Source: a virus
Lineage: Duplodnaviria; Caudoviricetes
Reading direction: 5' to 3' (one strand)
IMG/VR virus record: IMGVR_UViG_3300033508_000475
Coordinates: 1-25,430 of that record
DNA length: 25,430 bases
Positions within the stretch are counted from its first letter, which is position 1. Each line of letters opens with the position of its first letter. The notes beneath the pieces were generated by a model that did no database searches, had not been told where the DNA came from, and was given only the letters and a program-made list of their open reading frames with translations. Made by a program: the position numbers and the translations under genes. Positions 1 to 23,035 of the stretch are shown piece by piece.

Positions 1-162
1 ACTAAGATAGTTACAAATAATGAATCTAATATAGTAGAATATCAATCAATAAATTTAGATGATGCAAATATAATTAATAAATCTGATATACAAAAAAATA
101 ATGATAACTATATTATCTTAAATACTCAAATTGCTGCTGCTACTTCAACTTTAACTTATTAA
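1..162 (+). CDS. C-terminal end of the baseplate hub/Tal-like tail protein that starts at 23900 and wraps across the circular junction
   Basis: Frame 1 reads TKIVTNNESNIVEYQSINLDDANIINKSD...ILNTQIAAATSTLTY* (TAA 160-162). Bases 1-58 are identical to 25373-25430 and in frame with the 23900 ORF. Confidence 0.85.
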   Translation, partial: TKIVTNNESNIVEYQSINLDDANIINKSDIQKNNDNYIILNTQIAAATSTLTY

Positions 163-176
163 CATAATTATATATC

Positions 177-1592
177 ATGACTCAAATTAAATTTAGGCCT
201 TTATCAAATGTTAATTTTTTTAGTCAAATTTGAACAATAGCAAATCAACAAACATGAACTGTTAATTGTTTTAATTGGTGATGATGAAATTTAGAAAATG
301 ATTTTTGATTAATTGTTCAATGATCAATTAATCATTATTGATCTACAATTTTTTTAATTAATTATGACACTTTAACTAATTCTTCATCAATTTATAATTT
401 TGATATAATTGATTGATTTAATACAGAAAACTGATGGAATAAATCAATGTGGTTAAAAAAAGATTGATTTATATACCAATTTTTTGTTCCTTCTGTATCA
501 TCAAATAGAAAAATGTATATAAGAAGATTTATTGTTTGAACAACTGCTAATGCATCTTGAGTATTTAAATTAGAAAGAGATGTAGCTTATTGAACTTTAA
601 TAACTTGAGATAATTATACAACAACAACAACAGTGACAGCTAATCTAAATTATTGAGTTAAAATGATAAAACATTCTTGATATTTTGTTATATGTGTTTT
701 TTGATTCAATAATTGAATAACTACTAATACAATAACTTTTGATGTAGCAAATAATATTAATATTGTGAATCATAATCTTATTGCATCAAATTCAAATTCA
801 AGTGAAACTCAAAATATGATGAATTTTGATTCATATTTTCTTGTTCAGGCTCAAGCTTCAATTTGTACTATGTTTACATTAACATGAACAAATATAAATA
901 ACATTTGAAATGTAACACATTCTTTATTATGACGAGCAGTTATAAGAAATAGTCAAGGACAATTTAATAAATTAAAACAAAGTTGAAAATATATAACAGA
1001 AAGTTGAGCATTTATTTGATATTACAATGCCTGAAGTTTAACTTTACAGGCTACTTCTCTTTCAAGAAATTGAAATTGATTAGACAACTCTGTATTTCCT
1101 ATTAGATTAGATTCTTCTGTAATTTTTAAATGATTATTATCAACAAATTGGTCTATCGTAGATAATAATTTTAATTGACCAAATGAAAGTTTATTGCCAG
1201 TCATAAATACTTGGATAAGTAGAGTAGAACATGATAATGATACATATACTTTGTTATTAAATAGTTGAAACCTTTATACATTTCAAATAACTGAAAGTTG
1301 AAATGCTGTAAATTTTGTATCAACTTGATACATAGAAACAAAAGATTATGTAGTTACAGCATGATTTGCTAAATGTTCTTTCTCAGCAATTGAGAATTTA
1401 AATTGACAAACAGCAAATTATCAAGTTTCTTTTGATAGTTGAGCAACTCGAACATGAATAACTCTTAATTCTTTTCTTACACTTCCAACAACACCTTATC
1501 CAAGTTTTATTAGGTTAAAAGTGACTTTATCAACAACAAATGTAACTCAAACTAGTCAAGTAGATAAAATAAATTTTCTTTTACATAATTAA
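177..1592 (+). CDS. Putative tail fibre / receptor-binding protein (471 aa, TGA=Gly)
   Basis: Continuous ORF once TGA is sense. Asn/Thr/Ser/Gly-rich, beta-type composition. Lies after the hub gene and before the endolysin. C-terminal Asp-box-like motif YQVSFDSGAT[CGA]TGI. Confidence 0.65.
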
Positions 1593-1606
1593 AATATTAA
1601 TTAAAT

Positions 1607-2254
1607 ATGTCAGAAACAATTAATAAATTTGAAAATTGATTAATAGTTATACATCATACCGCATGATGAACATTAGATTCAATTAATAATTCTCATAAGA
1701 AAAGATTTTTTGATGAACAAAAATTAAAACAAGCTTTATGAAAAATTAATTGAGAAATAACTAAATATCCTTATATTGCTTATCATTTTTTAATTGATAA
1801 ATGAGTTATCTATAGAAATAGAGATCTTAATCAAGTTTGATACCATGCTTGAAATTGGAATGTAAATTGTAATTCTATAGCTATTTCCGTTAATTGAAAT
1901 TTTGAAAATGAAGAAATAACAGAACAAGATTTAAATTGTATTAAAGAAATCTTAAAAGAATTATGAGAAAAAATTGAAATAAAAGAAATAAAATGACATA
2001 GAGACATAAAAGCAACCTTATGTCCATGAAAAAATTTATATAAAAAACTTGATGAATTAAGAGAATTTGTTTTTAAAAAAGAAGAAAAACAATGAAAATA
2101 TGAAAAGATTTTTAATGATGAATTTTGATGAAAAAGTTCTATATATTATGATTTAAATAGTATTATTAATAATATAAAAATTGATAAAGAAGATTTATAT
2201 ATAATATTAATATGACAAGAAAGATTATATCAAGAAATAAAAAAAACTATATAA
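1607..2254 (+). CDS. Endolysin, N-acetylmuramoyl-L-alanine amidase (Amidase_2 / T7 lysozyme-like), 215 aa
   Basis: Motifs IVIHHTAGG, IAYHFLIDKG, VGYHAGNWNVNCNSIAISVNGNF and IKGHRDIKATLCPGKNL supply the Zn ligands His/His/Cys. The conserved glycines in these motifs are TGA codons. Confidence 0.92.
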
Positions 2255-2288
2255 TAAAATGTGTTTAATAAAATAAATATAAAAGGAG

Positions 2289-2321
2289 AAAAAAGAAAGC
2301 ATTATGCTTTCTTTTTTTTTT
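2289..2321 (+). terminator. Intrinsic terminator, probably bidirectional, closing the late operon
   Basis: AAAAAAGAAAGCA-TTA-TGCTTTCTTTTTTTTTT: inverted repeat with a long T tail 35 bp after the endolysin stop. Confidence 0.8.
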
Positions 2322-2411
2322 AAATAAAATATAAATAATTTTTTTTAAATATTATAAATTAATACATTATTAAAAATAAAATTATATAATTAAAAAAGAT
2401 TTTATATAAAA

Positions 2412-2436
2412 AAAAGATAATACTGTATTATCTTTT
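2412..2436. promoter_or_regulatory. Perfect 25-bp palindrome, operator or initiator site candidate
   Basis: AAAAGATAATAC-T-GTATTATCTTTT, 12-bp arms around a single central base. Confidence 0.55.
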
Positions 2437-2514
2437 AAAAGATTTTTTAAAAAAGTATAAAAAAGATATCAACGAATGAAAAAAAAAACTATATATTAAG
2501 TTTGTAGAGTTGAT

Positions 2515-2628
2515 TTAAGATATTAAGATATTAAGATATTAAGATATTAAGATATTAAGATATTAAGATATTAAGATATTAAGATATTAAGATATTAAGA
2601 TATTAAGATATTAAGATATTAAGATATT
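2515..2628. repeat. Perfect tandem array (TTAAGATA) x ~14
   Basis: 114 bp of uninterrupted 8-mer. TAA occurs in all frames on both strands, so it is non-coding. Confidence 0.97.
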
Positions 2629-2684
2629 CTCATTAACTCAAAAAATTTAATAATATTATTTTTTTATTAAAATAAAATATTAAA

Positions 2685-2798
2685 ATGAATAAAAAAGATA
2701 AAAAATTATATAAAAAACAAATAAAATTAATGAAAAAATTATCATTATATTTTTTAAAATTTAATAAAAAATGATGATATTTATTAAATATATACTAA
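2685..2798 (+). CDS. Small basic hypothetical protein (37 aa)
   Basis: MNKKDKKLYKKQIKLMKKLSLYFLKFNKKGGYLLNIY*, with a T-rich then A-rich leader like the other genes. Short and may be spurious. Confidence 0.35.
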
Positions 2799-3058
2799 AA
2801 AATTATTTATATTTATAAAAATATAAATAAATTCTTATATTAATATTTAATTATTATTTTATACTTATATCTTATACTTATATTTTATATTTAATTATTA
2901 TCTTATACTTATTATCTTATAATTTTAATTATAATATTATATATAAAATCTTATTTCTTAAATTTATGTATTTTAAAAATTAAATAATTATATTATAAAT
3001 AATATATTAGCTTAATAGCTTATAGCTTATATCTTTATCTTAAAACATTTAAAACATA

Positions 3059-3670
3059 ATGAAAATATATAGTATTAATTATTCAAATTTAAAAAATATA
3101 AATGATTTAAAAAATGAAGCATTTATTGAATATAATAATGAGAATAAAATAATGAATTGAAGACAAAAATTATGAAGTTCTTACGATTCTAATACTCATT
3201 CAAAAATATCAAATTGATTATTTTCTGAGAAAATATTTAATATTGCATTTCAAAAATATATTAGATCCGAAAATTGTTCTTTTCTACCTTTTGATTTTAT
3301 TAATCAAGAAAAAAATATAATATTTGATTTAAAAACAATGAATATAAATTGAGATATACAAAGAATTATTAATTCTCAAACATTTTATTTACAAGCAAAC
3401 TCTGTTAAAAAACTTAAAAAATATGCTGATAATAATAATTATGATTATGATAAATGTTATTATATAATTGCTATGTTAGATGAAAATATACAAGTATTAC
3501 ATATAATATATTCAAACAATTTTAATTTAAATAATATTTTAAAATTAGAAGCTGAATCTAAAATGCCTCCTTGGTCACAAAAAACTTGAAATTTACAACC
3601 AATTATGAATTATATATTAAAATATGATGATTGAGAAAAAAGAGAATTTAATGAAATGAATTTAAAATAA
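3059..3670 (+). CDS. Putative PD-(D/E)XK-fold nuclease (203 aa)
   Basis: GLFSEKIFNIAF (helix Glu) followed by LPFDFINQEKNIIFDLKT fits the E...PD...(D/E)xK layout. Confidence 0.5.
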
Positions 3671-3671
3671 T

Positions 3672-3743
3672 TTATATTATAAATATAAGTCCGTAATGAC
3701 AATAAACTAAATCTCCTTTTTAATTTATTATTCTATTAAACAC
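3672..3743 (+). promoter_or_regulatory. Repeated accessory-region promoter/leader element, copy 1 (truncated at 5' end)
   Basis: TATTATAAATATAA-GTCCGTAATGAC-AATAAACTAAATCTCCTTTTTAATTTATTATTCTATTAAACAC-ATG. Confidence 0.7.
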
Positions 3744-4292
3744 ATGAGAAAAGAAAAACCTTTAAATTTGAAATTAACTAAAAAAGAAATTGAAGATATG
3801 CAAATATTAATTTATAATAAATGTATGTCTTATAAATGAGAACCCTCTTATATTTTAAAATCTAATTCTTATTCTAAAGAAGATTTAAGATGAGAAATTT
3901 TTACATTTCTTATGAGATATTATCCTGTTCAGGAAATGAATAACTATGAAATGTATAATAAATATCTTGAAAAAAAGATAAAACAAACACATTTTGAGAT
4001 AGAAAATTTAATGAAGAAAAAAATGAAATGATTTGATCTTGTACAAATTGATAATGAAAATAATTATGTACAAATTGAAAATGATAATAATGAAGATATA
4101 ACAAATATAAAACTTATTATTAAAAATTCAATTAATGAAGAAATAACTGATGCAATGTTAGAAGATATTTATTATAGTCTCATTGATTGAAAAAGAAAAA
4201 ATGTTATAATTAAAATATCTTTTCCAAAATTGCGTCAAAAAATATGAATTGAATTATTAAAATTACAAGAAGAAAAAAATAAAGATTTATAA
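3744..4292 (+). CDS. Hypothetical protein, possibly sigma-factor-like transcriptional regulator (182 aa)
   Basis: ORF is clear. ILIYNKCMSY...YSKEDLRGEIFTFLMRYY loosely resembles sigma-70 region 2.1-2.2 (EDLxQE). Function is weakly supported. Confidence 0.4.
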
Positions 4293-4297
4293 AATAT

Positions 4298-4327
4298 AAA
4301 ATATAGCTATTTTTAGCTCTATTTTTT
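4298..4327 (+). terminator. Intrinsic terminator
   Basis: AAAATATAGCTA-TTTT-TAGCTCTATTTTTT, an imperfect stem with T tail just after the 4292 stop. Confidence 0.55.
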
Positions 4328-4414
4328 AATAAAAAAAGTTTTTTTAAAAAGAAAATAAGTTAAATTTTATTTGATTAAATCTATATTTTTAAATTTAAAA
4401 TTAAAAAAGTATTA

Positions 4415-4549
4415 AAAAAAGATTTTTAAAAAATATCTTATAGTATTATAAATATATAAACGCATCAATTATGTTAACTGACTCTATTGAGACTAACTAA
4501 TTAAAGCTTTATATCTTATTATTCTTTTATTTATTATTATATTAAACAC
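4415..4549 (+). promoter_or_regulatory. Repeated element, copy 2 (divergent middle)
   Basis: AAAAAAGATTTTTAAAAAATATCTTATAGTATTATAAATATATAAA, then a different spacer without the GNRA hairpin, then CTTTATATCTTATT...ATTAAACAC-ATG. Confidence 0.7.
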
Positions 4550-4852
4550 ATGACTAATCTACTTAATTATCTTAACAACAATTTAACATTTAAAATTTGA
4601 TATAATTGAGCAATTAATGAGCAAGAAATTATTGAACAATTAAAAAATATAAATGAAATTAATAAAAATGAATATGAATACAATGAAAATGATTGAATTT
4701 GAAAAAAAACTATAATGTTATGTAATAAAGAAACATTTACATTATATGAGATTAAATTTATTAAAAATAATATAAAATGTGAAGAATATTTATACTTTAA
4801 AAATATTGATAAAAACACTATTTTATTTGAAAAACAATTATTATATAAATAA
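4550..4852 (+). CDS. Hypothetical protein (100 aa)
   Basis: MTNLLNYLNNNLTFKIGYNGAINEQ...FEKQLLYK*. The stop codon overlaps the start of the next repeat copy. Confidence 0.75.
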
Positions 4853-4950
4853 AAAAGATTTTAAAAAATAAATAATAGTATTATAAATATATAAATATCC
4901 GAAATAACTATAAACTATTTCTCTTTTTATTTCTTATTCTTATTAAACAC
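4851..4950 (+). promoter_or_regulatory. Repeated element, copy 3
   Basis: AAAAAAGATTTTAAAAAATAAATAATAGTATTATAAATATATAAAT-ATCCGAAATAAC-TATAAACTATTTCTCTTTTTATTTCTTATTCTTATTAAACAC-ATG. Confidence 0.85.
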
Positions 4951-5451
4951 ATGAACAAATTTAAACTTGATATTATTAATATCTCAGAAGACAGATTAAA
5001 TAAAACTATTTTAGTTAACAAATTAAGACAATGACAATTAGAAAAAATTGAAATTAAAGATTGATATATAGAAGTTATATATCTATGAAAAAATTGGTAT
5101 GATATTAAATTAAGAGACATGAAAAATAATATGATTGCAGAAGCTAAAAGAAAATATAAATATGAAATAATAAAATTTTGCAAACAAATTTGGACAGAAA
5201 GATATAAAAATAATAACTTTTATACTTATATATCTAATACAGAAAGTTATTCAAAAATTTATATATCAAAAACAAAAAATAATGATTGTATTTTTGAGAT
5301 AAAAAATCTTGATAATAATAAAAATATAATGTATACAAATTTTGAACAAGCTGAATATTTTACATTTAATTCTAATTATAATTGCTATCGAGTACATAAT
5401 TGAGATATTGATAATATTAATACAAAAACTTTAGAAGCTTATTTAAAATAA
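4951..5451 (+). CDS. Hypothetical protein (166 aa)
   Basis: MNKFKLDIINISEDRLNK...TLEAYLK*. Contains the track ORF 5119..5403 as a fragment. Confidence 0.8.
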
Positions 5452-5489
5452 TAAAATTATTTCTTTTTATTCCTTATTCTATTTAAAAC

Positions 5490-6131
5490 ATGAAAAAAAA
5501 TAAAGATTTTATAAATAAAAAAGATATACTTAATACAAAAAATATAACTAAAATTGATATTAATAATAAAACTTCTTTAATAAAATTTAATTTTCAAAAT
5601 AAAACATATAATACAATTGAAAGAATTATACATAAAATTACAAAAAAAACCTTATTATATTATTATGATTTATCAGATGATTTAATAAATAGAATAATAA
5701 AAGTATCACATAAAATGAGAAGATTAAACACTAATAATGATGATTTTAAAAATATTTATAAACCTCGTTTTAAAAATATTATGAAATATGAAGATGTTTT
5801 TGATTTCTTTCCATTTGATTTTAATTTAGATAATTTTAATGAACATTATGTACATACATTTCAAAAAATTATTGATGATATATATGAATATAATATACAT
5901 GATTGAAGTAGAAAACATGTATATTATACTTCGTGACGAAATTGTTTACAATTAATACAACTTCAAAAACATAACAATATATATTATATTAATTATACAT
6001 TCAGAAGTCAATCATATAAATGTTTTTGATTAGATTTGATACAATTTGTATTGCCATTAATTGATAATATAATACATAATTGATGAGAAATTTGAGATAT
6101 AACATTTATGATTAATAATTTACATGAATAA
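5490..6131 (+). CDS. Divergent thymidylate synthase / dNMP hydroxymethylase-fold protein (213 aa)
   Basis: C-half HDGSRKHVYYTSGxNCLQLIQLQKHNNILYINYTFRSQSYKCFGLDLIQF...EIGDITFMINNLHE* parallels ThyA motifs in order: PDSRR, catalytic Cys, FQF, LYQRSxD, N177, GDF, H. Confidence 0.7.
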
Positions 6132-6243
6132 AAAAGATTTTAAAAAATAAATAATAGTATTATAAATATATAAATGTCCGAAATGACGATAAACTATTTC
6201 TCTTTTATATCTTATTTTTATTAATATGAATACTGAACAAATT
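6130..6243 (+). promoter_or_regulatory. Repeated element, copy 4 (extends through the first 6 codons of the next gene)
   Basis: Near-identical to 6970-7082. Hairpin GTCCGAAATGAC at 6176-6187. Confidence 0.9.
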
Positions 6244-6726
6244 AATTTAACGGTTAAATATTGTGATCAAAATCAAAAATGAAAACGATATGTTAAAAAT
6301 TGAATACATACAATATTTCTTGATGAAGATGTAGCAAAATCTTTAGAAATATGAGAAAATTATAATTTTTCTTTTTATGAAAAAAGTGAATTTAATCAAA
6401 GATTTTATTATTTCTGACAAAAATTTTGAAATTGTTCTGTAATAAGAAAAGATTATTGATTAGAATTATGATATGATACAGAAGAAATTAAAAAAGAAGA
6501 AATAATATCTTCTAAAGAAGAAAATAATAATGATAATTTTAATATATTAATTAAAAAATTAAATGATAAACTTGATAAATGAGAATATGATAATTATGAT
6601 TTAATTAAATTAAAAAATTTAATATTAAAAGTTGAAACAATTATTGAAAAATTAAATAATTATGATAATGAAACAATTATTAATAAGCTTGAAAACACAA
6701 ATGATTTTGATTTTTTTGATAATTAA
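6226..6726 (+). CDS. Hypothetical protein, possible single-stranded DNA-binding protein (166 aa)
   Basis: Beta-rich aromatic N-half (QKGKxYVKNGIHTIFLDEDVAKSLEIGENYNFSFYEK), helical middle, and acidic/aromatic C-tail NTNDFDFFDN*. ORF is solid; the SSB call is weak. Confidence 0.45.
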
Positions 6727-6776
6727 TATATAAATTTATTAAACTATTCCTTTTTATTTCTTTATTATAATTAAAA

Positions 6777-6971
6777 ATGAAATTTGAAAAAAAATATAAA
6801 TTATTTTGAAAAATTTATGATATTAATGAATTAATTAAATTATTAAATATTTTATCAATTAAAAATGATAAACAAGATACAAATATTTATATAATATTAG
6901 TTAAAAATATTATTGATAATACTAACATTTTAATAAGAAGAATAAATAATAAATATTATTTTATTAATTAA
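6777..6971 (+). CDS. Hypothetical protein (64 aa)
   Basis: MKFEKKYKLFGKIYDINELIKLL...KYYFIN*. Preceded by the 3' half of the leader element (AAACTATTCCTTTTTATTTC). Confidence 0.65.
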
Positions 6972-7082
6972 AAAGTTTTTAAAAAATAAATAATAGTATT
7001 ATAAATATATAAATGTCCGAGATGACGATAAACTATTTCTCTTTTATATCTTATTTTTTTTAATATGAATACTGAACAAATT
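6970..7082 (+). promoter_or_regulatory. Repeated element, copy 5 (extends through the first 6 codons of the next gene)
   Basis: Hairpin GTCCGAGATGAC at 7015-7026. Ends with ATGAATACTGAACAAATT, the same as copy 4. Confidence 0.9.
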
Positions 7083-7367
7083 ATAAACAATCTTAATACA
7101 TTTAATATGTTTAGATTAGAATTATTAAATATTATTATTGAAGATATTTATCAATTAAAAAATAATATTGATAAATGAGAAACATTTTATAAAAAATATA
7201 ATAAGATAAATACATCAATAAAAGAAGATAACTATATTTCTATAAAAGTCTTTAAAAATGATTATAATGAATTATATAATATTAAAATTAATTTCTTTTG
7301 TTGACGTTGTCATATTGATAATATAAAATTTGATGAATTAGCTTGAATTATATTAAAATATATTTAA
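7065..7367 (+). CDS. Hypothetical protein (100 aa)
   Basis: MNTEQIINNLNTFNMFRLELL...FFCGRCHIDNIKFDELAGIILKYI*. Confidence 0.75.
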
Positions 7368-7394
7368 AACTTTTATTATTTAATTATTAAAAAA

Positions 7395-7514
7395 ATGGAA
7401 AAATTACAAAAATTAAAAGAAATATTATTAATAAATATACTAAACTATATTTATATTTGAATATGTGTTATTATTTTAATTCAAAATTTTGAATTAATTA
7501 AACATATTAAATAA
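7395..7514 (+). CDS. Small single-TM protein (39 aa)
   Basis: MEKLQKLKEILLINILNYIYIGICVIILIQNFELIKHIK*, with the typical CTTTTATT leader. Confidence 0.55.
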
Positions 7515-7534
7515 ACTTTATTTATTACATTAAA

Positions 7535-8140
7535 ATGATAAAAAAACTTATTAAAATAATATTTCTATTATTAATATTTAATTTATATAATAGTATTATA
7601 TTTGCTTTTGATATAACTAAATATAATAATAAAGAAGAGAATATAATAATATGATGTATTAATAAAAAAAATGAAACTATTGATGTAAAAATTAACTCAA
7701 AATGAAAAAAATATTGTGATTATAAAAATATAATATTGCCAAAAAAATCACATTTATTAATATTTAAAGAATTATATTGAGATAATAAAACTATGATTGC
7801 TAATAGATTAGCATTAATTAATTTTGAAAGTGCATTTAATGAGTATGCAATTAGTCCTTGATGAGATTATTGATATATACAAATTAGATGATGAAAAGAA
7901 TATTTATGATTAATTAAAGAATCATTATATTATTTAGATGCTAGATTTATTGAACAAAAGATAAATTTATGTCAAAAAAAACTTAAGATAAAATCAGATG
8001 ATTATGATAATATATATAAATGTTTATTAATGAGACATAATTGAAGAAAAACATTAAATAATAATTATACTATTAGATGAATTAATACAAGAAATTATTA
8101 TATTAATTATTTTAAAAATAATAACGAACAAAAAAAATAA
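7535..8140 (+). CDS. Lytic transglycosylase (SLT / lysozyme-like fold) with N-terminal signal peptide (201 aa)
   Basis: LALINFESAFNEYAISPGGDYGYIQI matches the SLT motifs ES..N..A.S..GA.GLMQ; CLLMRHNG corresponds to AYNxG. N-terminus MIKKLIKIIFLLLIFNLYNSIIFA-FD is signal-like. Confidence 0.8.
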
Positions 8141-8181
8141 CTATATAACAAATATAACCTTTTATTTTATTATTTATTAAC

Positions 8182-8466
8182 ATGATTTATTACATTAAAC
8201 TAATGTTTTTAAAACAAAATTGAGCACATTGTGAAATTAAACGAGAAATTGATGAAAAAATATTCTTAAAATATGAAAAAAAAACTTCAGAATTTAAATT
8301 AAATTTTATTGAAAAGTTAGTGAAAGAACAACTTTTATTATTAAGAATGAATTATTTTTGATCTTTTGATTATAAATTCACTTGATTTAGATTAGAAAAA
8401 TTAACAACAAGACAAAAAAAAATAAGAGATGAAGCTATGATACTTATTAAAGAAAATATTAACTAA
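8182..8466 (+). CDS. Hypothetical protein (94 aa)
   Basis: MIYYIKLMFLKQNGAHCEIKxEIDEK...ILIKENIN*. Confidence 0.7.
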
Positions 8467-8493
8467 CTTTTTATTTAATAATATATAAAACAC

Positions 8494-8877
8494 ATGATTG
8501 CATTTATACTATTCCTTATTTGAATAATTATTCTACTTATGTTTATATTTTGAACTACAATTAAATTTGCTATTATATTCTTTATATTTATAATAATATG
8601 AAGTTTAATACCTATTTTGACTTGATATTATAGTTTTATTCTTGATAAAAAGAAACAATATAATAAAGAATATAAAAAATTATTAAATCAATGATATTTT
8701 GATTTAAAAGATAATTGAGAATGATGAAAATATCAAGAATTTCTTAATGATTGTTTTAATGATAAAATTGAAGAAGAAAAGATGAATTATTTTTTTGAAC
8801 AAGAAGATAAAAGATTAAATAAAGAAAATGATAACACTGAAGAAAAAATAAATAAATTTATAAATGATAATTATTAA
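8494..8877 (+). CDS. Membrane protein, two N-terminal TM helices plus charged tail (127 aa)
   Basis: MIAFILFLIGIIILLMFIFGTTIKFAIIFFIFIIIGSLIPILTGYYSFIL followed by a K/E/D-rich domain. Confidence 0.75.
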
Positions 8878-8911
8878 TAATATACTTTTAATTCTTAATT
8901 TAATAAAAAAA

Positions 8912-9262
8912 ATGTTTAAATATGATAGTAGAATAAGAAAACAATATAATATTATGTGAGATAAATATTCTTTATATTTTGATATAACATCATCATTATT
9001 AACAATATTTTTAATTTTATTTTCATTATTAAATAATATTAATATTATATTTTATATGTTAACATTATTTAATTTATTAATAATCTTAATATCATTCTTC
9101 TTAACAGAAAAAAATTGTAATATGATTATATTAGATATTGATGAAAGAATAAATAATAATTATAAAAATATTTTATTTAATAATAAAATTATATCATTAA
9201 TTAAAATAACTAATATTATTATTTTATTTATATCTATTATATTAATTATATTATCAATTTAA
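8912..9262 (+). CDS. Membrane protein, about 3 TM helices (116 aa)
   Basis: Extends track ORF 9056..9262 upstream through a TGA. Three I/L/F-rich segments. Confidence 0.7.
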
Positions 9263-9289
9263 AATATATATAAATATAACAAATAATTT

Positions 9290-9316
9290 AAAATATGACT
9301 TTATGTCATATTTTTT
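9290..9316 (+). terminator. Intrinsic terminator separating the accessory and packaging regions
   Basis: AAAATATGAC-TTTAT-GTCATATTTTTT, a perfect 10-bp stem with T tail. Confidence 0.75.
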
Positions 9317-9320
9317 AAAT

Positions 9321-9338
9321 AACTATATAATATATAAA
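9321..9338 (+). promoter_or_regulatory. Putative late promoter motif upstream of terS
   Basis: AACTATATAATATATAAA, identical at 14707-14724 and nearly so at 19655. Contains TATAAT. Confidence 0.6.
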
Positions 9339-9427
9339 GATTTTTATTTTTAATACTTATATTATTTTATAAGAAAAAAATATATATAAAATAAATAAAA
9401 GCAATTTTAATATTTTAAAAATAAAAT

Positions 9428-9832
9428 ATGAGACAAACAACTAAAACTTTAGAGAAAAAAATAGCTAAAAGTATAATTAAAAGTGTATCAGATTGATTTT
9501 GAATCATAAAGGCATGTAAAAGGTGATGAATATCTGTACCAACTTTTTATATGTATTTAGATAATTATAATTTAAGACATGAATATAATAAAGCAAAAAC
9601 AGATATAATATATGATGCATTAAAAACAATTAATAAAGCAGTTAAATTTGATGCTAAAATTGCATTAGAAGTATTAAAAAGAAGAGATAAAAAAATATGG
9701 TCAGAAAAAACAGAGATAAAACATGAGTGAGAAATAAAATGATGAAATAATCGAATAACATCTATACAATTAATATGATTTGATGAATATGAAAGAAAAA
9801 AAGAAGAAAATAATGAAGAAACAGATAAATAA
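9428..9832 (+). CDS. terS: Terminase small subunit (134 aa)
   Basis: N-terminal HTH (VSDGFGIIKACKRGGISVPTFYMYL), ALEVLKRRDKKIWSEKTEIKHEG, and position directly before terL. Confidence 0.8.
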
Positions 9833-9861
9833 AATAAAGTTTATTTCTATTTATATAAAAT

Positions 9862-11214
9862 ATGAAAGAAAAAAAAGAAAGAAAATATGAAATAATTTTA
9901 ACAAAAAAACAACAAGAATTCTATAAAGCATTTTTAAATAAAAAAATAAATGAAATTTTAATTTGAGGATGAGCTAGATGATGAAAAACTTGGTGAGTTT
10001 GAGAAATCATTTTATTAACAATGATTTTATACCCTTGAATCGTATGGTTAGTTTGAAGAAGAGAATGGGATGACTTAAGGAAAACTAGTTTACAAAATAT
10101 ATTGAAAATATTAAATAAAAAATGAATGAAAGAAAAAGAAGATTTTCGAATGAATTATCAAACAAAAGAATTATTATTAAAAAATTGATCTAAAATATAT
10201 TTTATGCCTTTAAAACAACAACCTTCTGATCCTGAATTTAATTTTTTGGGTTGATATGAGATAACTTTTTTCTTTATTGATGAAGCACAGGAAGTTTCTG
10301 AAAAAGTTTTATCAATTTTGAAGTCAAGGTGTACAGAGAAAATAAAAGAATATAATCTTGTCTGAAAATGATTCTTATCTTGTAATCCTTTAAAATGTTG
10401 GTTATATGATAGATATATAAAACCACGAAAAGAATGAACTTTATCAGAGAATTTAATATTTATTCCTTCTCTTTATCTTGATAATCCTTATATGGATCAT
10501 CGTAAATATGAAAAAATGTATGAAGATGCAGATGAAGTGACTAAAGAAAGACTACTTAAGTGAAATTGGGAATATGATGATACACCTTGAAAACTTTATG
10601 AATATAATGATATATTAAATATATTTTCTAGAGAAGTAGAACAAGAAGATTTAGATATGTATATAAGTATTGATTGAGCTACAGAATGAAAAGATAAAGC
10701 TGTTTTATTAATTTGGAGATGATTTGAAATAGTTGAAGCAAAAATTTGGGATAAATGTACTACAAAAGATATTGAAGATTATGCTAAATTAAAAATGAGT
10801 GAATATAATATAAGAGATAAAAATGTTGTAAATGATCATGTATGAATATGAGCATGAATATCATATTGAATTTGAAATAATGTTTTTAAATTTAATTCAA
10901 ATTCTTCTGAAATAAAAAAGAAAGCTAAAGACCCACAAATTTTTAATAGATTAAGGGATCAAGTTTATTTTGAATTAAAAAAACATATAAAAAAAATAAC
11001 TGTAAGAGATAAAGAATTAAATAAATATAAAGAAATAATAATAAGAGAACTTGATGTAATTGCTCAAATTGATATTGATAAATGATGACCACAAAAAATA
11101 ATTAAAAAAGAAGATATAAAAAAATTAATATGACATAGTCCTGATTTTGCTGATGCAATTGCTATGAGAATGATTTATGAATGTAATAGAAAGAAGAGAC
11201 TATCATTTTTTTAA
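9862..11214 (+). CDS. terL: Terminase large subunit (450 aa)
   Basis: Q motif LTKKQ, Walker A IGGGARGGKT, Walker B FFFIDEAQE, coupling motif SCNP, nuclease motifs ISIDGATEGKDKAV and GHSPDFADA. Confidence 0.95.
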
Positions 11215-11265
11215 AAAACTATATTAATATTAAAAGATTAATATTTTAACTTATTTATAAAAAAA

Positions 11266-11466
11266 ATGTTAAAAAATATAAGTTGAAGAGAATTAATGTC
11301 AGCATCTATATATGTAGATTATGATGAAGTTAATAACTCATATAAATTAGTTACAACAGATACAAAAAATAGTGCAACAAATTTAAAAATTATTGCTATT
11401 AAAGATTTAATTGATAGCACAATAAAAGTTAACGAAGTTGATTGACAACTTAGTTTTTTAATTTAA
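11266..11466 (+). CDS. Hypothetical virion-associated protein (66 aa), N-terminus paralogous to the next gene
   Basis: MLKNISGRELMSASIYVDYDEVNNSYKLVTTD... Confidence 0.7.
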
Positions 11467-11482
11467 TAATTATATTTATAAT

Positions 11483-11965
11483 ATGCAAAAAGAAATTGCC
11501 TTTAGAGAACTTTTAGATTCAACAATTCTTGCTGAATACAATGAAGTTAATGATGTATATACTTTAGTAGTTAATTGATCAAATTGATCTTGAAGTTGAA
11601 ATGAATATTTCATTTGATATTCTTGAATGATTAATTTTTTTGAAAATATGAATAATTATTTTAGTATATTTTTTTCATATAATACTCAAAATAAAAAATC
11701 AAATGAACTTGAAAATAAAATTAAAAATAATTTACATATAAAAGAGATATATTTAAATATTACATCAAATGAATTAATATCTAATATAAAAATTAGAGAT
11801 ACAGAATGAAATGATATTTGAGAAATAACTGCATGATTTATTTGAGTTTTAAAAATTGATAATTTAAATCTTATTTATGATTTAGATGATATAATTTTTT
11901 TTGAAACATCAATTTGAACCTGATGATGAATGTGTTGAGTTAATCAAATTATGTTTAAAATTTAA
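11483..11965 (+). CDS. Hypothetical virion-associated protein (160 aa): shared N-terminal module, GS linker, beta-rich domain
   Basis: MQKEIAFRELLDSTILAEYNEVNDVYTLVVNGSNGSGSGNEYFIGYSG... Confidence 0.7.
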
Positions 11966-11978
11966 TTATATTATTAAT

Positions 11979-13253
11979 ATGACAAAAAAATATAAGAATA
12001 AAATAAATAAAAAAGGTAGTGCAACACCTCAAAATTTAATTAATAGAGTAGAAAATTGAAAGAAAAGATTTGATTATCAAAATACTGATATTTTTTTCTG
12101 AAAAAGTATTAATATTAATGAATTAATGTATACTGCAATTGATGATCTACTTTATCAAATTTATTATGCTAATGCAGATGTACAAAGAGCTATAGCAGAT
12201 AAAAATAATTTAATCTTTGAATCATGATACTTATTTAAAAATAAAAAATGAGAAACAATAAGTACAGAAAAAACTAATAGATTTAATGATATATTAAATA
12301 ATCATATTGATTTTGAAGATTTTAAAAAAGAATTTAATTATTACAGAAATATCTTCTGAAATGTATATACTTATATATTAGAAGATAATGATTGAAGAGT
12401 AGTATGAATTCAAAATTTAGATCCAAGGTTTATTTATCCACATTTTAATGATTTCTGATTTGTAACTCATTATTGATATTTAAATATGGAACTTGAAAAA
12501 TCAAGAATAATACACTTTAAAAATTGATTTGATCCTAATCAAAAATATAAAGGTATGAGTCCTCTTGTTTGAGGTATCTTAGATATTCTTTGAGATAATG
12601 AAGCAGCTAGATCTAATTTTATGTTCTTCTTAAATAATGCTATACCAGCATCTTTAATAAAATTTAGTGAAGATGTTGATGCAGAAGATATAAAAATTAT
12701 TATGAAACAAATGAATGAAAAATTTTCTTGATGAAATAATCAACATAAAATTTGAGCATTGCAATGAGTTGAATGAGTAGAAAAACTTCAGAAAGATTAT
12801 AAAGACATGGAGTATAAAATTCTTAGAGATTTCTCTACTGAAAAAATAGCTACATGTTTATGAGTTCCTCTAACTAGATTAAATAAAATTAATGTAACAT
12901 ATAATAATATGAAAGAAGCTTTTGAACAATATGTTGAGGCAACAATATTAAACGAAGAAAAAGATTTTGAAACTCATTTAAATAAAATATTAAAATATAC
13001 ATTTTATTTTGATGATATAAAAATTGAAGCAATTAATGATCATGTTGATAATACATTATATTATACTGATATTTATATTAAACAAATTGAAAATTGAATT
13101 ATTACACCAGCTTTTGCAGCTGAAAAATTATGATATGAAATTAAAGATGAAGAAAATCAAGATAAAATTTATATGAAAAATTGATTATTAAAGATAGAAG
13201 ATATATGAATGCCTTTAACACAAACTGATTTTAATTTATGAGAAATACAATAA
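11979..13253 (+). CDS. Portal protein, HK97 family (424 aa)
   Basis: IFGNVYTYILEDNDGRVVGIQNLDPRF, IIHFKNGFDPNQKYKGMSPL, FFLNNAIPASLI, KDMEY, IATCLGVP. Confidence 0.93.
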
Positions 13254-13918
13254 TGATTGAAATATTTAATTTAATAGATAAATTTTGAATTAGTTTTACA
13301 ATTGTTGCAATTATAATATACTTTTGAGTTTCATTTACAAAATTTTATTTAGAGAAATATAAAAGAGATAATAGATTAGATAAATTAAATTTAAAAAATC
13401 ATGACATATTTTCTAAAATAAATAATTTAATAAACGTTGAAACAAAATATATTGATGCAACTTATGAGTCAAAAAAAAATATGGCTAAAGATTATATTAA
13501 ATTATCTATGTTCGTATTCTTAGAAGAATTAAAGAAATTATTAAATGATATTAATGATAATTATGATGAAGAATTATTATATAATAAATTATTAGATTTT
13601 ACAACAGAACAAGATAAAAAAATATATAAGATAAATCATAGTCTTAATATTGATAAAAGATTTATAGAAAAATATGAATATTATAATAAACAAAGAAATG
13701 ATTTAATTAAAAATTTTATTTCTAGAATAATTAAATCTGATTATTATACAACAAAAATAAAAATAGCAATTATATTAGATAATTATATAAAAGAATGGGA
13801 ATGAAGTATATATGATGTTAAAAATGCTATAAGAGATATTAATTGAGAATTAAAAGCAGTTGAATATAAAGAACAATTAGAAGACATTGAAACAATTAAA
13901 AAATTTTATTACAGTTAA
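13253..13918 (+). CDS. Membrane-anchored protein (221 aa), possible holin-like
   Basis: TAATG overlap with the portal stop. N-terminal TM segment FGISFTIVAIIIYFGVSF followed by a helical soluble domain. Confidence 0.55.
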
Positions 13919-13927
13919 AATAATATA

Positions 13928-14698
13928 ATGTGTAATATATGTTATAAAATTAAAAATAATTGATGAAGAAATAATAATAAAATAAGACATTTAGAAAAAG
14001 AAACAACTAAAGATATATTAAATTTTTATAAGGAAGTTATTAAATGAATTAAAAAAGAATTAAATAAAAAATCAGTATCAAGTTTATCAAATAATATACA
14101 AAAGATAGTTAATGATGCAGTTAAAAATACTTGAATAACTGATAATATAATTAAAAATTTCTTAACATCTGCTAAAACATGAAATAGTTATGTAAATAGA
14201 ACAATGAATTTTTGAATTTGATTTGATAGAATAGAAGAAACTATGCAAAGATATTTTCAATGAATTATTGATGAATTTACACCTACTGAAACATGAGATA
14301 ATATAGTATCAAATATGATTAGAAATATAAAATTAATATCTGCTGAATGAGCTCAAGAATGATTAAGTGCTAGTTTAATTTGAAGAAGAATATCTGAATC
14401 AACTTCTTTATCAGTTCATAGAGCAAATACTATAGCAATTAGAGAAATATGAATATGATATGAAAAATGAAAAGAAGAAACAATAAATTGATATTTATCT
14501 GAAAATCCTTGAAAAAAAGTTTTCAAAAAATGGGTTACAGTATGAGATAGTAGAGTTACACCTTCTCATACTCAAAATGAAAAAGATGGTTGGATATTAA
14601 AAGATCAATCATTTAGTTGAACATGAGATCAAATTGCTCCTGCTTCTGATAATCCAAGATGTCGTTGTAGTGTTGTTTATAAATTTGAAAATGCTTAA
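13928..14698 (+). CDS. Minor head morphogenesis protein (Mu gpF / SPP1 gp7 family), 256 aa
   Basis: RANTIAIRE, KKWVTVGDSRVTPSH, PASDNPRCRCSVVY. Confidence 0.9.
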
Positions 14699-14706
14699 AT
14701 ATAAAA

Positions 14707-14724
14707 AACTATATAATATATAAA
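14707..14724 (+). promoter_or_regulatory. Putative late promoter motif upstream of protease/capsid genes
   Basis: AACTATATAATATATAAA, identical to 9321-9338. Confidence 0.6.
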
Positions 14725-14749
14725 TGTTTAACTTTATTAATATAATGTA

Positions 14750-16219
14750 ATGAATATAAAGAAACAATATTGATGAGAAATGTGTTTTATACAAGTTAAC
14801 TTTAAGTTAAATAAACAAAATAAAGATTGAAATTGAATAATGATAGAATGATTCTGAAGTACTGATGCAAAAGATTGTGATTCTGATATTGTAAAATACT
14901 CAGCTTGGGATACAAAAACAATTAATGAATTCTTAAATAATCCTCAAATGTTATTATCTCATGATTTTAATAAATCAATTTGAAGATGGTTAAAATTAGA
15001 GAGAAAAATATCTTGAAATAAAAAAGGATTATGGGTTGAATGAGTTGTTGAACATGATTTAATTGAAGATTGAGTATCAATAAAAGAAAGAATAAGAAAA
15101 TGAACAGTTAGAACTTTATCAATTTGATTTATACCATTGAAATATAAATGGATTAATAAAAAAGGTGAAGTATTAGCAGATGAATTTTGACTTAAATTTT
15201 GAATTAAAGATGAAGATCTATATAAAGAATGAGTAGTTAGATATATTAGCAAAGTTGAATTATTTGAAATTAGTGTTGTTAATATTCCTGCAAATTCTCA
15301 AGCAATCTTTGCTTTACAGAAATCATTAAAAATTAATAATTATTTTATTTTACAAAATTTTAAAAATATGAAGACAAAATTAAATTTAAATGTATTTAAA
15401 TGAAGAAGAACAAAAGAAGCAAGTATATCACTTGATCAAATTGAAACTGAATTTAATGCAGTTGAAACTGTAATTGAAGAAGTTAAAACATATTTAAATG
15501 ATATAACTCTTGAACTTGATACTGTTGAAAAGAAAATTGAAGATTGAATTGCTGAAGAAGATGCTAAATTAATTGTATCTGATTTAGAAACAATGAAACA
15601 AGAAATTATTACAAATAAAGATGAGTTAGTTGCTGTTGAATGAATACTTGAACAAGTTAATGTTGATGCAATGACTAAAGAATTATCTGAAGCTGATGCT
15701 GAAATGGTTAAAGAAAAAATTGATGAATTAACATCTGAAGTTAAAGAAGAAATAGTTGAATTAGAAAAAAATGAAGAAAGAATAACATCTTTATATGAGA
15801 AAATTTGAGTTAATTCAGAAGATGAATCTACTGATGAAACAATAACTGATCCTGTAGAATGAGAAGAAATAACTACTGAAGGAGAAGATACTAAAGAAAT
15901 TGATGAAGAAGAAGTTAAAGAAAAAAAAGAAGATATTAAAGAAGAAATTACAAAAGAAAATTTAACTGAAATGATTAAACAAATTATTAAAGAATTAATC
16001 CCTGATGATAATAGTTGAAATAAAGCAGATGAAATCTCTGCATTAGAAAAATCTTTTTCTGACACAGTTACATCACTAAATGATAAAGTTGATAAAATGG
16101 CTACATTATTAGCTAAAGCTCAAAGTTCTGCCATTCCTGTTGTTTCTACTGTGAAGTCATTCAAAATTGATACAACTTGATTATCTGAACCAAAAAGCTT
16201 TTCTAAGAAAAGAGCTTAA
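14750..16219 (+). CDS. HK97-type prohead protease fused to an acidic coiled-coil scaffold (489 aa)
   Basis: IEGFGSTDAKDCDSDIV, PQMLLSHDFNKSIG (His), TLSIGF (Ser), ELFEISVVNIPAN, then about 280 aa of Glu-rich helix in the same frame. Confidence 0.9.
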
Positions 16220-16263
16220 AAAAATTTAAAAATTATTTTATTTTAATTTAAAAAAAACTAAAA

Positions 16264-17394
16264 ATGTTTAATAAAGAAAGATTTTACAAAACACTTAATG
16301 TATTATATGCTAATACTAAGTTTGATAAGAAAACTTGAAAGTATGAACTTCCAGCAACATTAAAAGGTTTAACAATTAATGAATTGTTAACTAAATCAAA
16401 TGAATCTATGTCAACTACTCAAGCTGATAATGGTTGAAACTTTACAGTTCCTGAACAATTAGAGGCTAATGTCATTGCTAGAGTTACGGAAGAAATTAAT
16501 CTATTATCTATGATTCCTGCTTCTAATCAATATTTAACAATGCCTTCTGATTCTTATAAGATTCCTGCTGTTGGTCAATCTCTTAGAATGAGCAGAATGA
16601 CAGAACAAACAGATGTTCCAGGTGCAGTTGCTCCAATCGTTAAAGCTAATACTAAGAGTATAACTCTTAATGCTGACAAATTAGCAACTACTATCTATGT
16701 TTCTTATGAATTAATGGAAGATGCAGTTATTAATTTTCAAAATTTTGTTGAAGCTGAATTAACTAGAGCATTTGAAGTATCTGTTCATAACTTCATCATT
16801 AATGGTGATAATGATACAGCTAATACTAATATCAATACTCTAGGTGCTGTTCCTTCAGTTACATTTGATTTTATGTGAAATGCTAACTGATTAAGAAAAT
16901 TAGCAATCTCAGCTTGAAATACAGTTAACTCTTGAACTTTAGATGTACAAGATATTAGAAAGGGAAGAAGTTTATTAAAAACTAAAGGTACTAGACCTTC
17001 TGATTTATTATTAGTTATGAATTCTCAAGTATATTTTCAATTGTTATCATTAACTCAAGTTGAAACAATTGAAACATTTGGTGCTAACGCAACAATTGTA
17101 AATGGTGTATTAACTCATATTGATGGTATTCAAGTTGTAGTTAGAGAAGAAGTTCTTAATGCTGATGCTGATTGAAAAGTTAATGATAATACAGCTTTAA
17201 ATACAAAAGGACAAATCTTAATAGTTCATGTTCCTTCATTATTTGTTGGATTCAAGAGATTATTAATGATCGAAGTTGATACTAATACTTCTACTCAACA
17301 ATATTTAACTACTGCTTCTACTAGATTAGCTTCAAATGTAAATCAAAATGATTTTCCTGCTGTTGCTCTTATTAGAAATATTACATTAGTTTAA
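16264..17394 (+). CDS. Major capsid protein, HK97 fold (376 aa)
   Basis: STTQADNGGNFTVPEQL, ITLNADKLATTIYVSYELMEDAVINFQNFVEAELTRAF, FIINGD, HIDGIQVV. Confidence 0.93.
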
Positions 17395-17409
17395 TATAAT
17401 ACATATAAA

Positions 17410-17440
17410 TTAAAGGGGATGTAATAATCCCCTTTAAATT
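17410..17440 (+). terminator. Hairpin/terminator after the major capsid gene
   Basis: TTAAAGGGGAT-GTAATA-ATCCCCTTTAA, an 11-bp stem and the most GC-rich hairpin noticed. Confidence 0.8.
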
Positions 17441-17464
17441 CCTTTATTTTAAAAATAATTTAAC

Positions 17465-17818
17465 ATGGAATATACATTTAAAGTTATGGCTGATACTTTA
17501 TTAAGAAGTACAAATTGAGAAAAATGTGAATATAAACAAGGTGATTTAATAACAGTTAATTCATTTGCTGATTATAGAAATTTTCTTAATTATGCTAGAA
17601 GATGAATAATTATTGAAGTTAAAATGAAAGAAGAAATTCTTGATATTGTTGATTCTGTTGTAGATACTGCAACTGATGTTATTAATACAGTTGATACTCT
17701 TGTAGATGATTCAATTGAAACTATTAATACTTTAGTAGATACTACAAAAGATGCAGTTAATAATATTGTAACAGATATTAAAAATGTTTCTTCTAAAAAA
17801 TCTAAGAAAAATAAATAA
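17465..17818 (+). CDS. Small protein after the capsid gene, with 11-residue periodic C-half (117 aa)
   Basis: MEYTFKVMADTLLRSTNGEKCEYKQGDLITV... then DIVDSVVDTAT/DVINTVDTLVD/DSIETINTLVD/TTKDAVNNIVT and a basic tail. Confidence 0.7.
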
Positions 17819-17843
17819 ATTTTATTTTTGTCAAAAAATATAA

Positions 17844-18458
17844 ATGTATCTAATTGACATTGATAATATAAAAACTCTTTATAATATGACATCAGATGAT
17901 GATTCATATATAGAACAAATTAGTGAAATAGTTGAATCTTATATTCATAATTTTTGTAATGTTAAAACATTTGAATATTGAGATTATGAAATAACTTTAA
18001 AAAATGAAAATAATAAATATAATAATAATTTAATTGATATTATTATTGAAAATTATACTAATATAACAGAATTAAAAAAAATAAATTGAATAATATATAC
18101 ATGAATAAGATGAGAAGATTATGAAATATTTAATAAAAGAAATATTCAATTATCTGAAAGTATATCATTCAATAAATTTTGATTAGCAAGACTTGAAATT
18201 ACAGCATGATTTCAAAATACAAGCAAAGAATTTATTGATATACAAAAAGCTGCTAATATATTATTTGAATTAATACATTCAAGTTATAGAAATAATAATA
18301 ATAAATATAGAATTTTAAATGATATAACTATTTGAGATATTTCAAAATGATTTAATACTAATGAAATGGATTCTGTTGTTTTTGAATCAAAAAAGAATGT
18401 TGTTATAGCAAATATTATATTAAAAAAATATAAATTATTAAATGCTTTATCTAATTAA
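17844..18458 (+). CDS. Head-tail connector/adaptor (HK97 gp6 / SPP1 gp15-like), 204 aa
   Basis: IDNIKTLYNMTSDDDSYIEQISEIVESYIHNFCN, later ITAGF...IQKAA, plus synteny. Confidence 0.75.
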
Positions 18459-18466
18459 TATATAAT

Positions 18467-18799
18467 ATGCTTGAAATAACAAATTGTATTATTGATGAAA
18501 TTAAAAGATTATCAGTTGATTTAGATAATAATAAAAATTTTGATATAATAGTAGCAACTAATATAAAAGCATATAAATATAAATGAAAATATGAAGATTT
18601 TGTAGCTTTTGAAGAATTTCAAAATTGACAAGAAAATTGGAAATTTATTATTGCTAAACAAGATTGATATGAAATTAAAGATAATGATTTAATTATTATT
18701 TGAAATGATAAATATTTAATTAAAAATAGTGTTTTACAAACACCTGATTGAGAGTTTTATAATTTTTATCAAATTATAAGTTTCAAAAATAATGATTAA
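18467..18799 (+). CDS. Head closure/stopper protein (110 aa)
   Basis: EIKDNDLIIIGNDKYLIKNS pattern, size and synteny. Confidence 0.65.
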
Positions 18800-18800
18800 T

Positions 18801-19214
18801 ATGTCTGTTAAAATTAAAATACCTGATTTTATTAAAAAAATACAATTAGAAAAACCAATTAAACAAACTATATTTGAAATTTGAAATGATATAAGAACTG
18901 ATGCTGTTATTAATGCACCTTATAAATCTTGATCATTAAGAAGATCCTTATCTGTCATAGTACAAGATAAATGATTTACAGTAGAAGTATGAAGCAATTT
19001 AGTTTATGCAAGAATACAAGAAGAATGATGAACAATTAATTGAAATCCTTATCTACATTTTAAAATATGAAATAATTGGATTAAAAAAAGAAGTGTAAGA
19101 ATTAGATGAAAAAGATTCTTAAAAAATTCTTATGATAAACATAAACAAAATATAGAAGAAAAATTTAGACAAAATTTTGAAAATTATATAATGAGATTAT
19201 CAAGAAGAAATTAA
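18801..19214 (+). CDS. Neck / tail-completion protein (HK97 gp10-like), 137 aa; alternative start at 18792
   Basis: NAPYKSGSLRRSL, VEVGSNLVYARIQEEGG, GKRFL. Confidence 0.85.
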
Positions 19215-19234
19215 TTTAATTTATTAAAATAACA

Positions 19235-19642
19235 ATGTATAAAGATATTTGTGATACAGTATATAATTTAATAAATAATAATAAAACAACTTTAAAAATA
19301 AATAAAATATATAATTATGATAAAGCTGTTTTTGATGAATGATTTGCTGCATGTGTAATAACTCCTGCTGCTAATACTTCAACAATTTTACAGAATACTT
19401 CTTATGAAGTTAATATTTGAGTTAATATAAGAATTTTTTGGGATTCTAAAAATTTACAAAATACAGAATCTGATATAAGAACATCAGCTGATAATATATT
19501 AAAATTATTAATGAGAAATTATACTTTAGAATGAAAAGCAATTAATCTTGATTTATCATTTAATTTTTGATATACTTGAGATCCTGCTTATAGAGTCTTT
19601 GAAATAACAGCTATTTATAAAACAGATTTTGATATAAATTAA
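19235..19642 (+). CDS. Tail terminator protein (135 aa)
   Basis: Size, position before the tail tube, and the pattern IYNY...FAACVITP...NYTLEG. Confidence 0.6.
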
Positions 19643-19651
19643 TATAATATT

Positions 19652-19668
19652 AAAAACTATATAATATA
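19652..19668 (+). promoter_or_regulatory. Putative late promoter motif upstream of the tail tube gene
   Basis: AAAAACTATATAATATA. Confidence 0.55.
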
Positions 19669-19703
19669 TTAAATAATATATTTTAATTGTAATTTAAAAA
19701 AAA

Positions 19704-20720
19704 ATGAATAATACACATATTTGAGCAAATCAAGCTTTATGACTTGCTAAAGAAACAACAAGATGAACAGCTGTAACAGCAAACATCATGTGGATACCAA
19801 AAGCTTCTTGAACATTAAATCCAGAAGATGCTTATGTAAATGATGAAAGTTGAATTGGTACTATTGTAACTGTGAGAGATTCTAGAAAAGTTAAATCAGG
19901 TTCAAATTTAACTTGTGAGTTAGTTATGTGAGATGTATCTGTATGACAACTTTTAATGTGAGTTTTTTGAGCTGAACCTACTTCAGTTGTTGATGCTTTA
20001 GATGCATGAGTATATAATCATACTTATGAATTAGCTGAAAATAATACACATAAATCATTTACAATATATGCAAATGATAATGTAATTGGTTCTTGAAATT
20101 CTGAAAGAGCAACGTATTGAGTAGTTGATTCTTTTGAAATCAATGCTACAGCATGAAATTATGTAAGAACTAATTTAACAATGATTTGAAGATGAGTTAC
20201 AGAAGTATCACATCAATCAACAAATTTTGTAAGTGAAAATAAATTCTCATTTGATGATGTATCAATAAAAGTTGTATCAGCTTCTGATAAAGCATCTGCA
20301 TTAACTGCTTTAGCTTCTGCTCCTGCATTTAAAGTACAATCTCTTAGAGTTAATTTTGCTAAAAATACTTTACAAAATCAAGAACTTTGATCATTAGATA
20401 TTGCAGATATATTTAATCAAAACTTCACAATTGAATGAGATTTTACAGCTGTATATAAAGATAAAGATATTTATGATGTATTTAATAGTTCATCTAAAAA
20501 ATATATGCAAATTATCTTAGAGAATAATAATGTAGTTATTTGAACAATTTCTAATCCTTCTTTAGATATTTTATTAAATCAAGTTAGTTTTCAAACTTGG
20601 ACAAAATCAAGTGATATAAATGCTATTGTTACACAAACTATTTGATTCATTTGAGAATATAATACAACTGATGCAGAAGCAGTCACTGCTGTATTAAAAA
20701 ATACTAAAACAAGTTATTAA
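19704..20720 (+). CDS. Major tail (tube) protein (338 aa)
   Basis: LGLAKETTRGTAVTA..WIP, GVYNHTY, SFTI motifs typical of siphophage tube proteins, plus synteny. Confidence 0.85.
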
Positions 20721-20754
20721 TAAAATCCTATTTTTAAATCTTTTTCTTAAACAC

Positions 20755-21033
20755 ATGATTGATAATATAACATATAAAAAAGAAACTGTTAAAATTGCAG
20801 AAACATATCAAAATATGATTATGCAAGCATCTTGAAAATGAGACTATGAAATGTATATTGCTGTACAAGCTGCTAATAAATACAAAGTTTGAGTATTAAC
20901 ATGATTATCTGAAGATGAAATTAATGAATTAGAACCTTCATTATACTCTGAAATGTTAACAAATGTTTGAGCTATTATGAATACATGAGAAGCATTTAAT
21001 AATACAGATTATGAAGAAAAAAAAAAGTCTTAA
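20755..21033 (+). CDS. Tail assembly chaperone (lambda gpG-like), 92 aa
   Basis: LTGLSEDEINELEP motif. Ends GAA AAA AAA AAG TCT TAA. Confidence 0.8.
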
Positions 21034-21248: not shown

Positions 21249-21271
21249 TATTTTAGATATTAAATTAATAA

Positions 21272-23032: not shown

Positions 23033-23035
23033 AAA

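Follow-up and report, generated by a model that had tools for sequence, protein, structure and literature searches.

Tryptophan as the probable meaning of CGA in a phage that reads TGA as glycine

In a siphovirus-type phage whose genes open only when TGA is translated as glycine, CGA is probably read as tryptophan. This assignment, made from sequence comparison, is likely on one strong site in a putative tail-associated protein, one moderate site in the terminase large subunit (terL) and a consistent clade of relatives, with one lysine-like site against it. A double reassignment, stop-to-Gly together with Arg-to-Trp, had been proposed from the letters of the DNA alone (hereafter the sequence-only reading). 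The proposal is supported; its best evidence is the strong site, at position 1449, together with how the nearest relatives use their codons, and not the terL motif that had been offered for it.

The window, which is the whole stretch of DNA analysed (25,430 nucleotides; 1..25430, + strand; the full record G000), has a GC content of 19.7% and no tRNA gene. Read with table 25, the + strand encodes a full set of siphovirus genes, with PHROGs and Pfam matches to terminases, portal, protease, capsid, tail tube, tape measure, Dit and amidase. Under table 11 there are just 18 ORFs of at least 60 amino acids, none of which matches a full gene. TGA serves as glycine in 32 of the 33 ORFs and in all gene classes, supplying 388 of 418 Gly codons (GGT 23, GGA 7) among 7,103 codons, and every one of the 33 ORFs stops at TAA. 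In the Codetta-like test described below, TGA is called Gly at 1.0 on 52 homologue columns.

The same 33 + strand ORFs, read with table 25, contain ten CGA codons, no CGG and 30 TGG. The sequence-only reading had placed ten in-frame CGA codons and no CGG, and all ten positions are in frame; it had also described Arg as mostly AGA, which agrees with the counts (AGA 185, AGG 9, CGT 5, CGC 1). A last reading frame, from 23909 to the contig end (507 codons) and running on into 1-162, adds neither CGA nor CGG. Codon counts alone do not show Trp, because the CGA:CGT ratio of 10:5 lies inside the A:T spread of the other four-codon boxes. The rates, 14 CGA per 10,000 codons and no CGG, fit the range published for Absconditabacteria (CGA below 37 and CGG mostly below 7 per 10,000; PMC8629427). 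Both terL CGA codons recur in L117, another assembly of this phage (99.9% over 4,377 nt), so they are not errors of a single assembly, though L117 may share the sample.

The strongest site for Trp is the CGA at 1449..1451 (+), residue 425 of a 471-amino acid protein (177..1592, +) that has no family match and also contains the CGA at 933. This protein is likely tail-associated because its gene follows those of the tail when the map is drawn as a circle; a single-sequence fold of it is uninformative (pLDDT 32). The codon falls on an aromatic column of an S-x-D-x-G-x-x-W module (lnLR Trp:Arg 8.2), where an Asp-box-like SxDxGxTW motif had led the sequence-only reading to expect Trp. Homologous domains bear this out: 28 of the 30 that span the column have an aromatic residue (20 W, 7 F, 1 Y), two have T and none has R or K, in a set whose retrieval was biased, as the search profile had W at the column in five of six rows and the column was masked for alignment only. 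These domains derive from 30 fetched loci, two of which were seeds, with 32 domains reaching at least 15 bits. The module itself (1320-1589) is common to large Patescibacteria proteins, being matched by the profile search in 39 of 401 genomes, and gave no Pfam or PHROG match in the full-length scan.

Searches with a query bearing Arg at the site agree with this picture. The best four matches in 301 phylum genomes all have Trp encoded by TGG at the column, the four being paralogues of one genome. Run against all 1.84 billion proteins of the database, the Arg query returned seven matches. P0147, the best standard-looking match, has W at the column within a closely matching motif. P0148, a full-length orthologue of the 471-amino acid protein (30% identity), has Q there by phmmer and W one residue earlier, the codon of that W being TGG or TGA. 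P0146 does not span the site, and P0149 has F, at 5 bits. Two repeat proteins, P0144 and P0145, with domains of at most 15 bits and P or K at the column, were set aside, and eleven chance-level rows of the Arg-query search (9-11 bits; W 1, R 3, six others, one uncovered) were not counted.

Two further CGA codons lie in terL (450 amino acids; 9862..11214, +; phrog_2, E 4.5e-32), in which the other seven Trp, invariant ones included, are all TGG and 27 Gly are TGA. The CGA at 10426..10428 (+), residue 189, had been flagged as the Trp of a family motif, and it is likely Trp with moderate support (lnLR 3.5). The peptide quoted for it was right, but KPWKxGxL is not conserved as a family pattern, Trp being present in 3 of 23 non-redundant standard-code homologues. 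Column 189 is variable among these homologues (A 4, F 4, S 4, D 3 and W 3 lead), and the site is weaker than claimed; in its favour, Arg or Lys occurs in none of 78 standard-code loci. The nearest relatives have F, W, F and CGA there. Among 119 proteins, R is found at the column in three (P0003, which is L118, P0041 and P0081), and these three also have R on Trp columns.

The CGA at 10147..10149 (+), terL residue 96, is neutral to unfavourable, and the alignment leans against Trp. Its column is Lys in 14 of the 23 non-redundant homologues, the 78 standard-code loci include one Trp (L011) and one Arg (L032), and the four nearest relatives have K, K, T and D. The lnLR Trp:Arg is +0.7 with all rows and -1.2 with code-25 rows only. 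The sequence-only reading had held that homologue columns with mostly Arg or Lys would speak against Trp; these residues are absent at 1449 and 10426, and 10147 has mostly Lys.

A Codetta-like sum was computed for the phage. The test uses HMM emission probabilities from homologue alignments, with the phage excluded, CGA/CGG masked in code-25 rows and HMMER background values applied. It calls CGA as Trp at 0.992 on three columns, with a summed lnLR Trp:Arg of 12.4 (8.2, 3.5 and 0.7); 1449 supplies two thirds of the likelihood, and 4.2 is left when that site is removed. AGA and AGG give -75.5 and -24.3, against +12.4 for CGA. CGT, seen on one column, has Lys as its best call and a lnLR of -2.2. 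In the controls, all 41 other codons with at least two columns gave their table-25 meaning, and four of the five codons seen on one column missed it. Three columns are far below proof that CGA is Trp. The protein database translates TGA as Trp, to the point that the phage's own terL shows 27 G-to-W differences there. W letters in code-25 relatives are distrusted for this reason, and DNA loci were tested where possible.

Usable homologue columns exist at three of the ten CGA sites. At 933..935 (+; residue 253 of the 471-amino acid ORF), P0148 is poorly aligned, and the near-identical P0121 has the same letter as the phage protein, a match at the level of the letter. At 5937..5939 (+; residue 150 of ORF 5490-6131), the lone homologue P0143 has W, which may stand for TGG (Trp) or TGA (Gly) given the database translation, and it was not counted as Trp. 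ORF 4951-5451 (CGA at 5389..5391, +) has no homologue among those found, no homologue of ORF 6226-6726 spans 6286..6288 (+), and ORF 8182-8466 (8242..8244, +) has a chance-level match only; at the first two of these sites the sequence-only reading had found Trp natural in its context. The terS codon at 9752..9754 (+; residue 109) lies in an unaligned C-terminal tail, the L118/L119 alignment ending at residue 101-102, short of the site. For Dit (23357..23359, +; residue 108) there is a phrog_33 match without an alignment, and no sequence homologue was retrieved. For the five sites lacking a homologue, viral scans that used capsid, portal, ORF 5490 and a motif pattern came back empty, a tblastn search with three proteins had no match in 50,697 phage records, and PDB sequence searches returned chance matches only. 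ORF 5490-6131 is itself shorter than P0143 (213 against 290 amino acids). Its C-terminal half may contain thymidylate synthase-like motifs, a reading that no family match backs.

Placement of CGA/CGG on Trp columns appears to be common among code-25 phages. With the phage itself left out, 12 of 17 non-redundant code-25 terL relatives show it, and 12 such codons in ten loci occupy columns 236 and 285, where all 23 standard-code homologues have W. In three other loci, L087, L088 and L113, CGA/CGG lie on Lys/Arg or variable columns; the rest of the 17 comprise one weak case (L114) and one without either codon. L123 is a fourth Arg type, with seven of its eight codons on columns that have K/R in at least 13 of 23 homologues. 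The nearest relatives with DNA, L118/L119 (66% in terL), carry CGA at the invariant W236, CGA at 189 as in the phage, and CGG at the aromatic column 439 (F in 21 of 23).

A quick 76-row tree places the phage in a five-row clade (SH-aLRT 100) with P0002, P0005, L118 and P0004. An Arg-for-Trp signature is seen in P0002 (R on two Trp columns), P0005 (one) and L118, and P0004 has no scorable column. In a careful 23-row tree the phage pairs with L118 (100/100). The topology tests reject a group made up of the phage and the four Arg-type rows (p-AU 8e-71), and also a single clade of Trp-type rows (p-AU 0.0009). At least three changes of CGR meaning are needed on this tree, whose groups were defined by codon reading after the first tree was seen, whose backbone is unresolved, and whose gene, terL, can move by recombination. 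Because what a codon means varies along the terL tree, the relatives are not proof for the phage.

It is improbable that CGA is plain arginine here, with the phage using table 25 only, as a BD1-5 (Gracilibacteria)-type phage would, and its Trp-like contexts being chance or tolerated. Arg-reading phages of this kind do exist among the relatives (L087, L088, L113 and L123, with CGA/CGG on Lys/Arg columns), 10147 lies on a Lys column, CGA encodes none of the invariant Trp in the phage's terL, and the two transitions TGG to CGG to CGA could leave an Arg. Set against this are the lack of any Arg or Lys among the 30 module domains at 1449 and the 78 standard-code terL loci at 10426, the strongly negative values of AGA and AGG columns in the Trp:Arg comparison where CGA is positive, and the Trp-type signature of all three testable clade members.

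The mixture of one Lys-like with one Trp-like site would also suit an ambiguous reading of CGA, or a recent move between Arg- and Trp-reading hosts, in which CGA was kept mostly where either residue is tolerated. The TGG codons at all invariant terL Trp and the repeated changes of CGR meaning on the terL tree point the same way, yet the column at 1449 is nearly always aromatic and the clade is consistently Trp-type. CGA would also make up a quarter of the Trp codons, so that by a rough estimate few conserved Trp on CGA are not unexpected. This explanation is rated a little lower still than plain arginine, and CGA as Trp on top of TGA as Gly is the best reading.

With CGA as Trp, the phage would infect an Absconditabacterales (SR1) bacterium that uses the TGA=Gly, CGA=Trp code. 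The host TrpRS would charge tRNA(UCG) with Trp, and the phage would borrow this tRNA, so that CGA would be read as tryptophan, including at the seven sites that have no usable homologue column. Recoding would then be a passive adaptation to the host code and not a regulatory device of the phage. Decoding would rest on the host because the phage carries no tRNA, release factor or synthetase: ARAGORN found no tRNA gene on the whole contig, and no release factor or synthetase family was seen in the 31 of 34 proteins scanned. The double code itself makes an Absconditabacterales-type host likely. A terL homologue at 49% is named from an Absconditicoccaceae MAG. No spacer or prophage link to a host was found: no spacer-length exact match to the phage is among the matches listed for 401 class genomes, in an insensitive search that scored at most two candidates per genome and left 88 matches unlisted.

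Five code-25 genomes contain terL relatives, on contigs that may be mis-binned; they are not this phage's host. The sequence-only reading had proposed to look for Trp identity elements in the host tRNA(UCG). By the published rule these are G73, no A20 and A/G1:U72 (PMC8629427). Such a tRNA(UCG), with G1:U72, G73 and U20 by position numbers assigned by eye, is present in three (G001, G003 and G005) of the four genomes with Trp-type or weakly Trp-type terL and was not found in G002. All four have a tRNA(CCG) with A1:U72 and G73, and the genome with an Arg-type terL has a partial tRNA(UCG) gene ending in A73. Further tRNA pattern searches gave no relevant gene. Genome G004, which contains L113, is titled Peribacteria, a label that may be wrong: TGA occurs in frame both in its release-factor gene and in terL, and the genome belongs to the class sample of G001.

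In two of the three genomes where tRNA(UCG) was found, the Trp-type gene lies directly upstream of tRNA-Trp(CCA), with gaps of 72 and 20 nt (L199:1470-1688 in G001 and L201:1391-1557 in G005). This adjacency may hint at origin or co-expression. A term search of PMC8629427 yielded no mention of such an arrangement.

The double code is already published for the likely hosts. In Absconditabacteria both CGA and CGG are predicted to mean Trp, and in some Gracilibacteria CGG only, on computational grounds (Shulgina and Eddy, 2021; PMC8629427). The Absconditabacteria code is also recovered by KACI (bioRxiv 10.64898/2026.04.02.715157), and Arg reassignments are described as still without experimental verification (PMC13695967). 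Like the genomes with the Absconditabacteria code, the phage has a low GC content, relies mainly on AGA for Arg and uses CGA more than CGG, and its two reassignments would be the same. It differs in that the published code concerns bacterial genomes, in having no CGG in frame, and in a GC content (0.197) below the 0.26-0.38 of the reassigned clades (PMC8629427).

Use of this code by the phages of these bacteria seems to be undescribed, as the sequence-only reading had supposed: no paper on CGA as Trp in phages was found, in a search of mainly open-access literature. Code-25 phages and prophages of Absconditabacteria and Gracilibacteria have been described (Liu et al., 2023; PMC10746230), with the same dense, genome-wide in-frame TGA matching the host code. 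The main text of that paper treats them under table 25 alone, with no occurrence of CGA, CGG or arginine. Those phages are tied to hosts by spacers, whereas the host of the present phage is deduced from its code. Two phage assemblies in recoded Bacilli are predicted to read AGG as Met (PMC8629427). Like the present phage they lack a cognate tRNA and follow a sense-codon change of the host, but the codon and host are different and no stop-codon change is added. Code 15 and code 4 phages of standard-code hosts also require a non-standard code; they recode against the host and often carry their own suppressor tRNAs, release factors and synthetases (PMC10746230). In contrast, the present phage has no tRNA and is recoded in all gene classes, not in part of the genome.

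If CGA is Trp in this phage, a predicted and experimentally unverified bacterial code would extend to viruses, with independent gene families giving the same signal. The recoding would be a consequence of the host code and not a new mechanism. Table 25 would turn conserved Trp of these phages into Arg, as the protein database turns their Gly into Trp, and the meaning of CGA/CGG would separate two host groups that table 25 lumps together. The Trp/Arg split of code-25 phages has more reach than the single-phage result. There is about an even chance that code-25 phages divide at CGA/CGG into those that read Trp and those that read Arg, and that the two are intermingled on the terminase tree because phages, or their packaging genes, repeatedly crossed the sense-codon barrier between Absconditabacterales and BD1-5. 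CGR meaning would then be a host marker, and virion proteins of such phages might allow peptides to show, for the first time, that a sense codon has been reassigned in bacteria.

The sequencing runs listed as containing phage sequence are microbial mat metagenomes, with no RNA run among them; two hold at least half of the words, and one of these may be the source. The contig ends in its first 126 nt repeated one and a half times with a 123-nt period, which points to a circular genome carrying a tandem repeat or to overlap in the assembly. A long AT-rich non-coding stretch at 2250-3060, which includes a short tandem repeat near 2515-2628, is a candidate replication origin. Between 4400 and 7100, several early genes are preceded by copies of repeated elements in the intergenic DNA, and the first residues of two ORFs are identical (MNTEQI), which might reflect a shared promoter or cassette.
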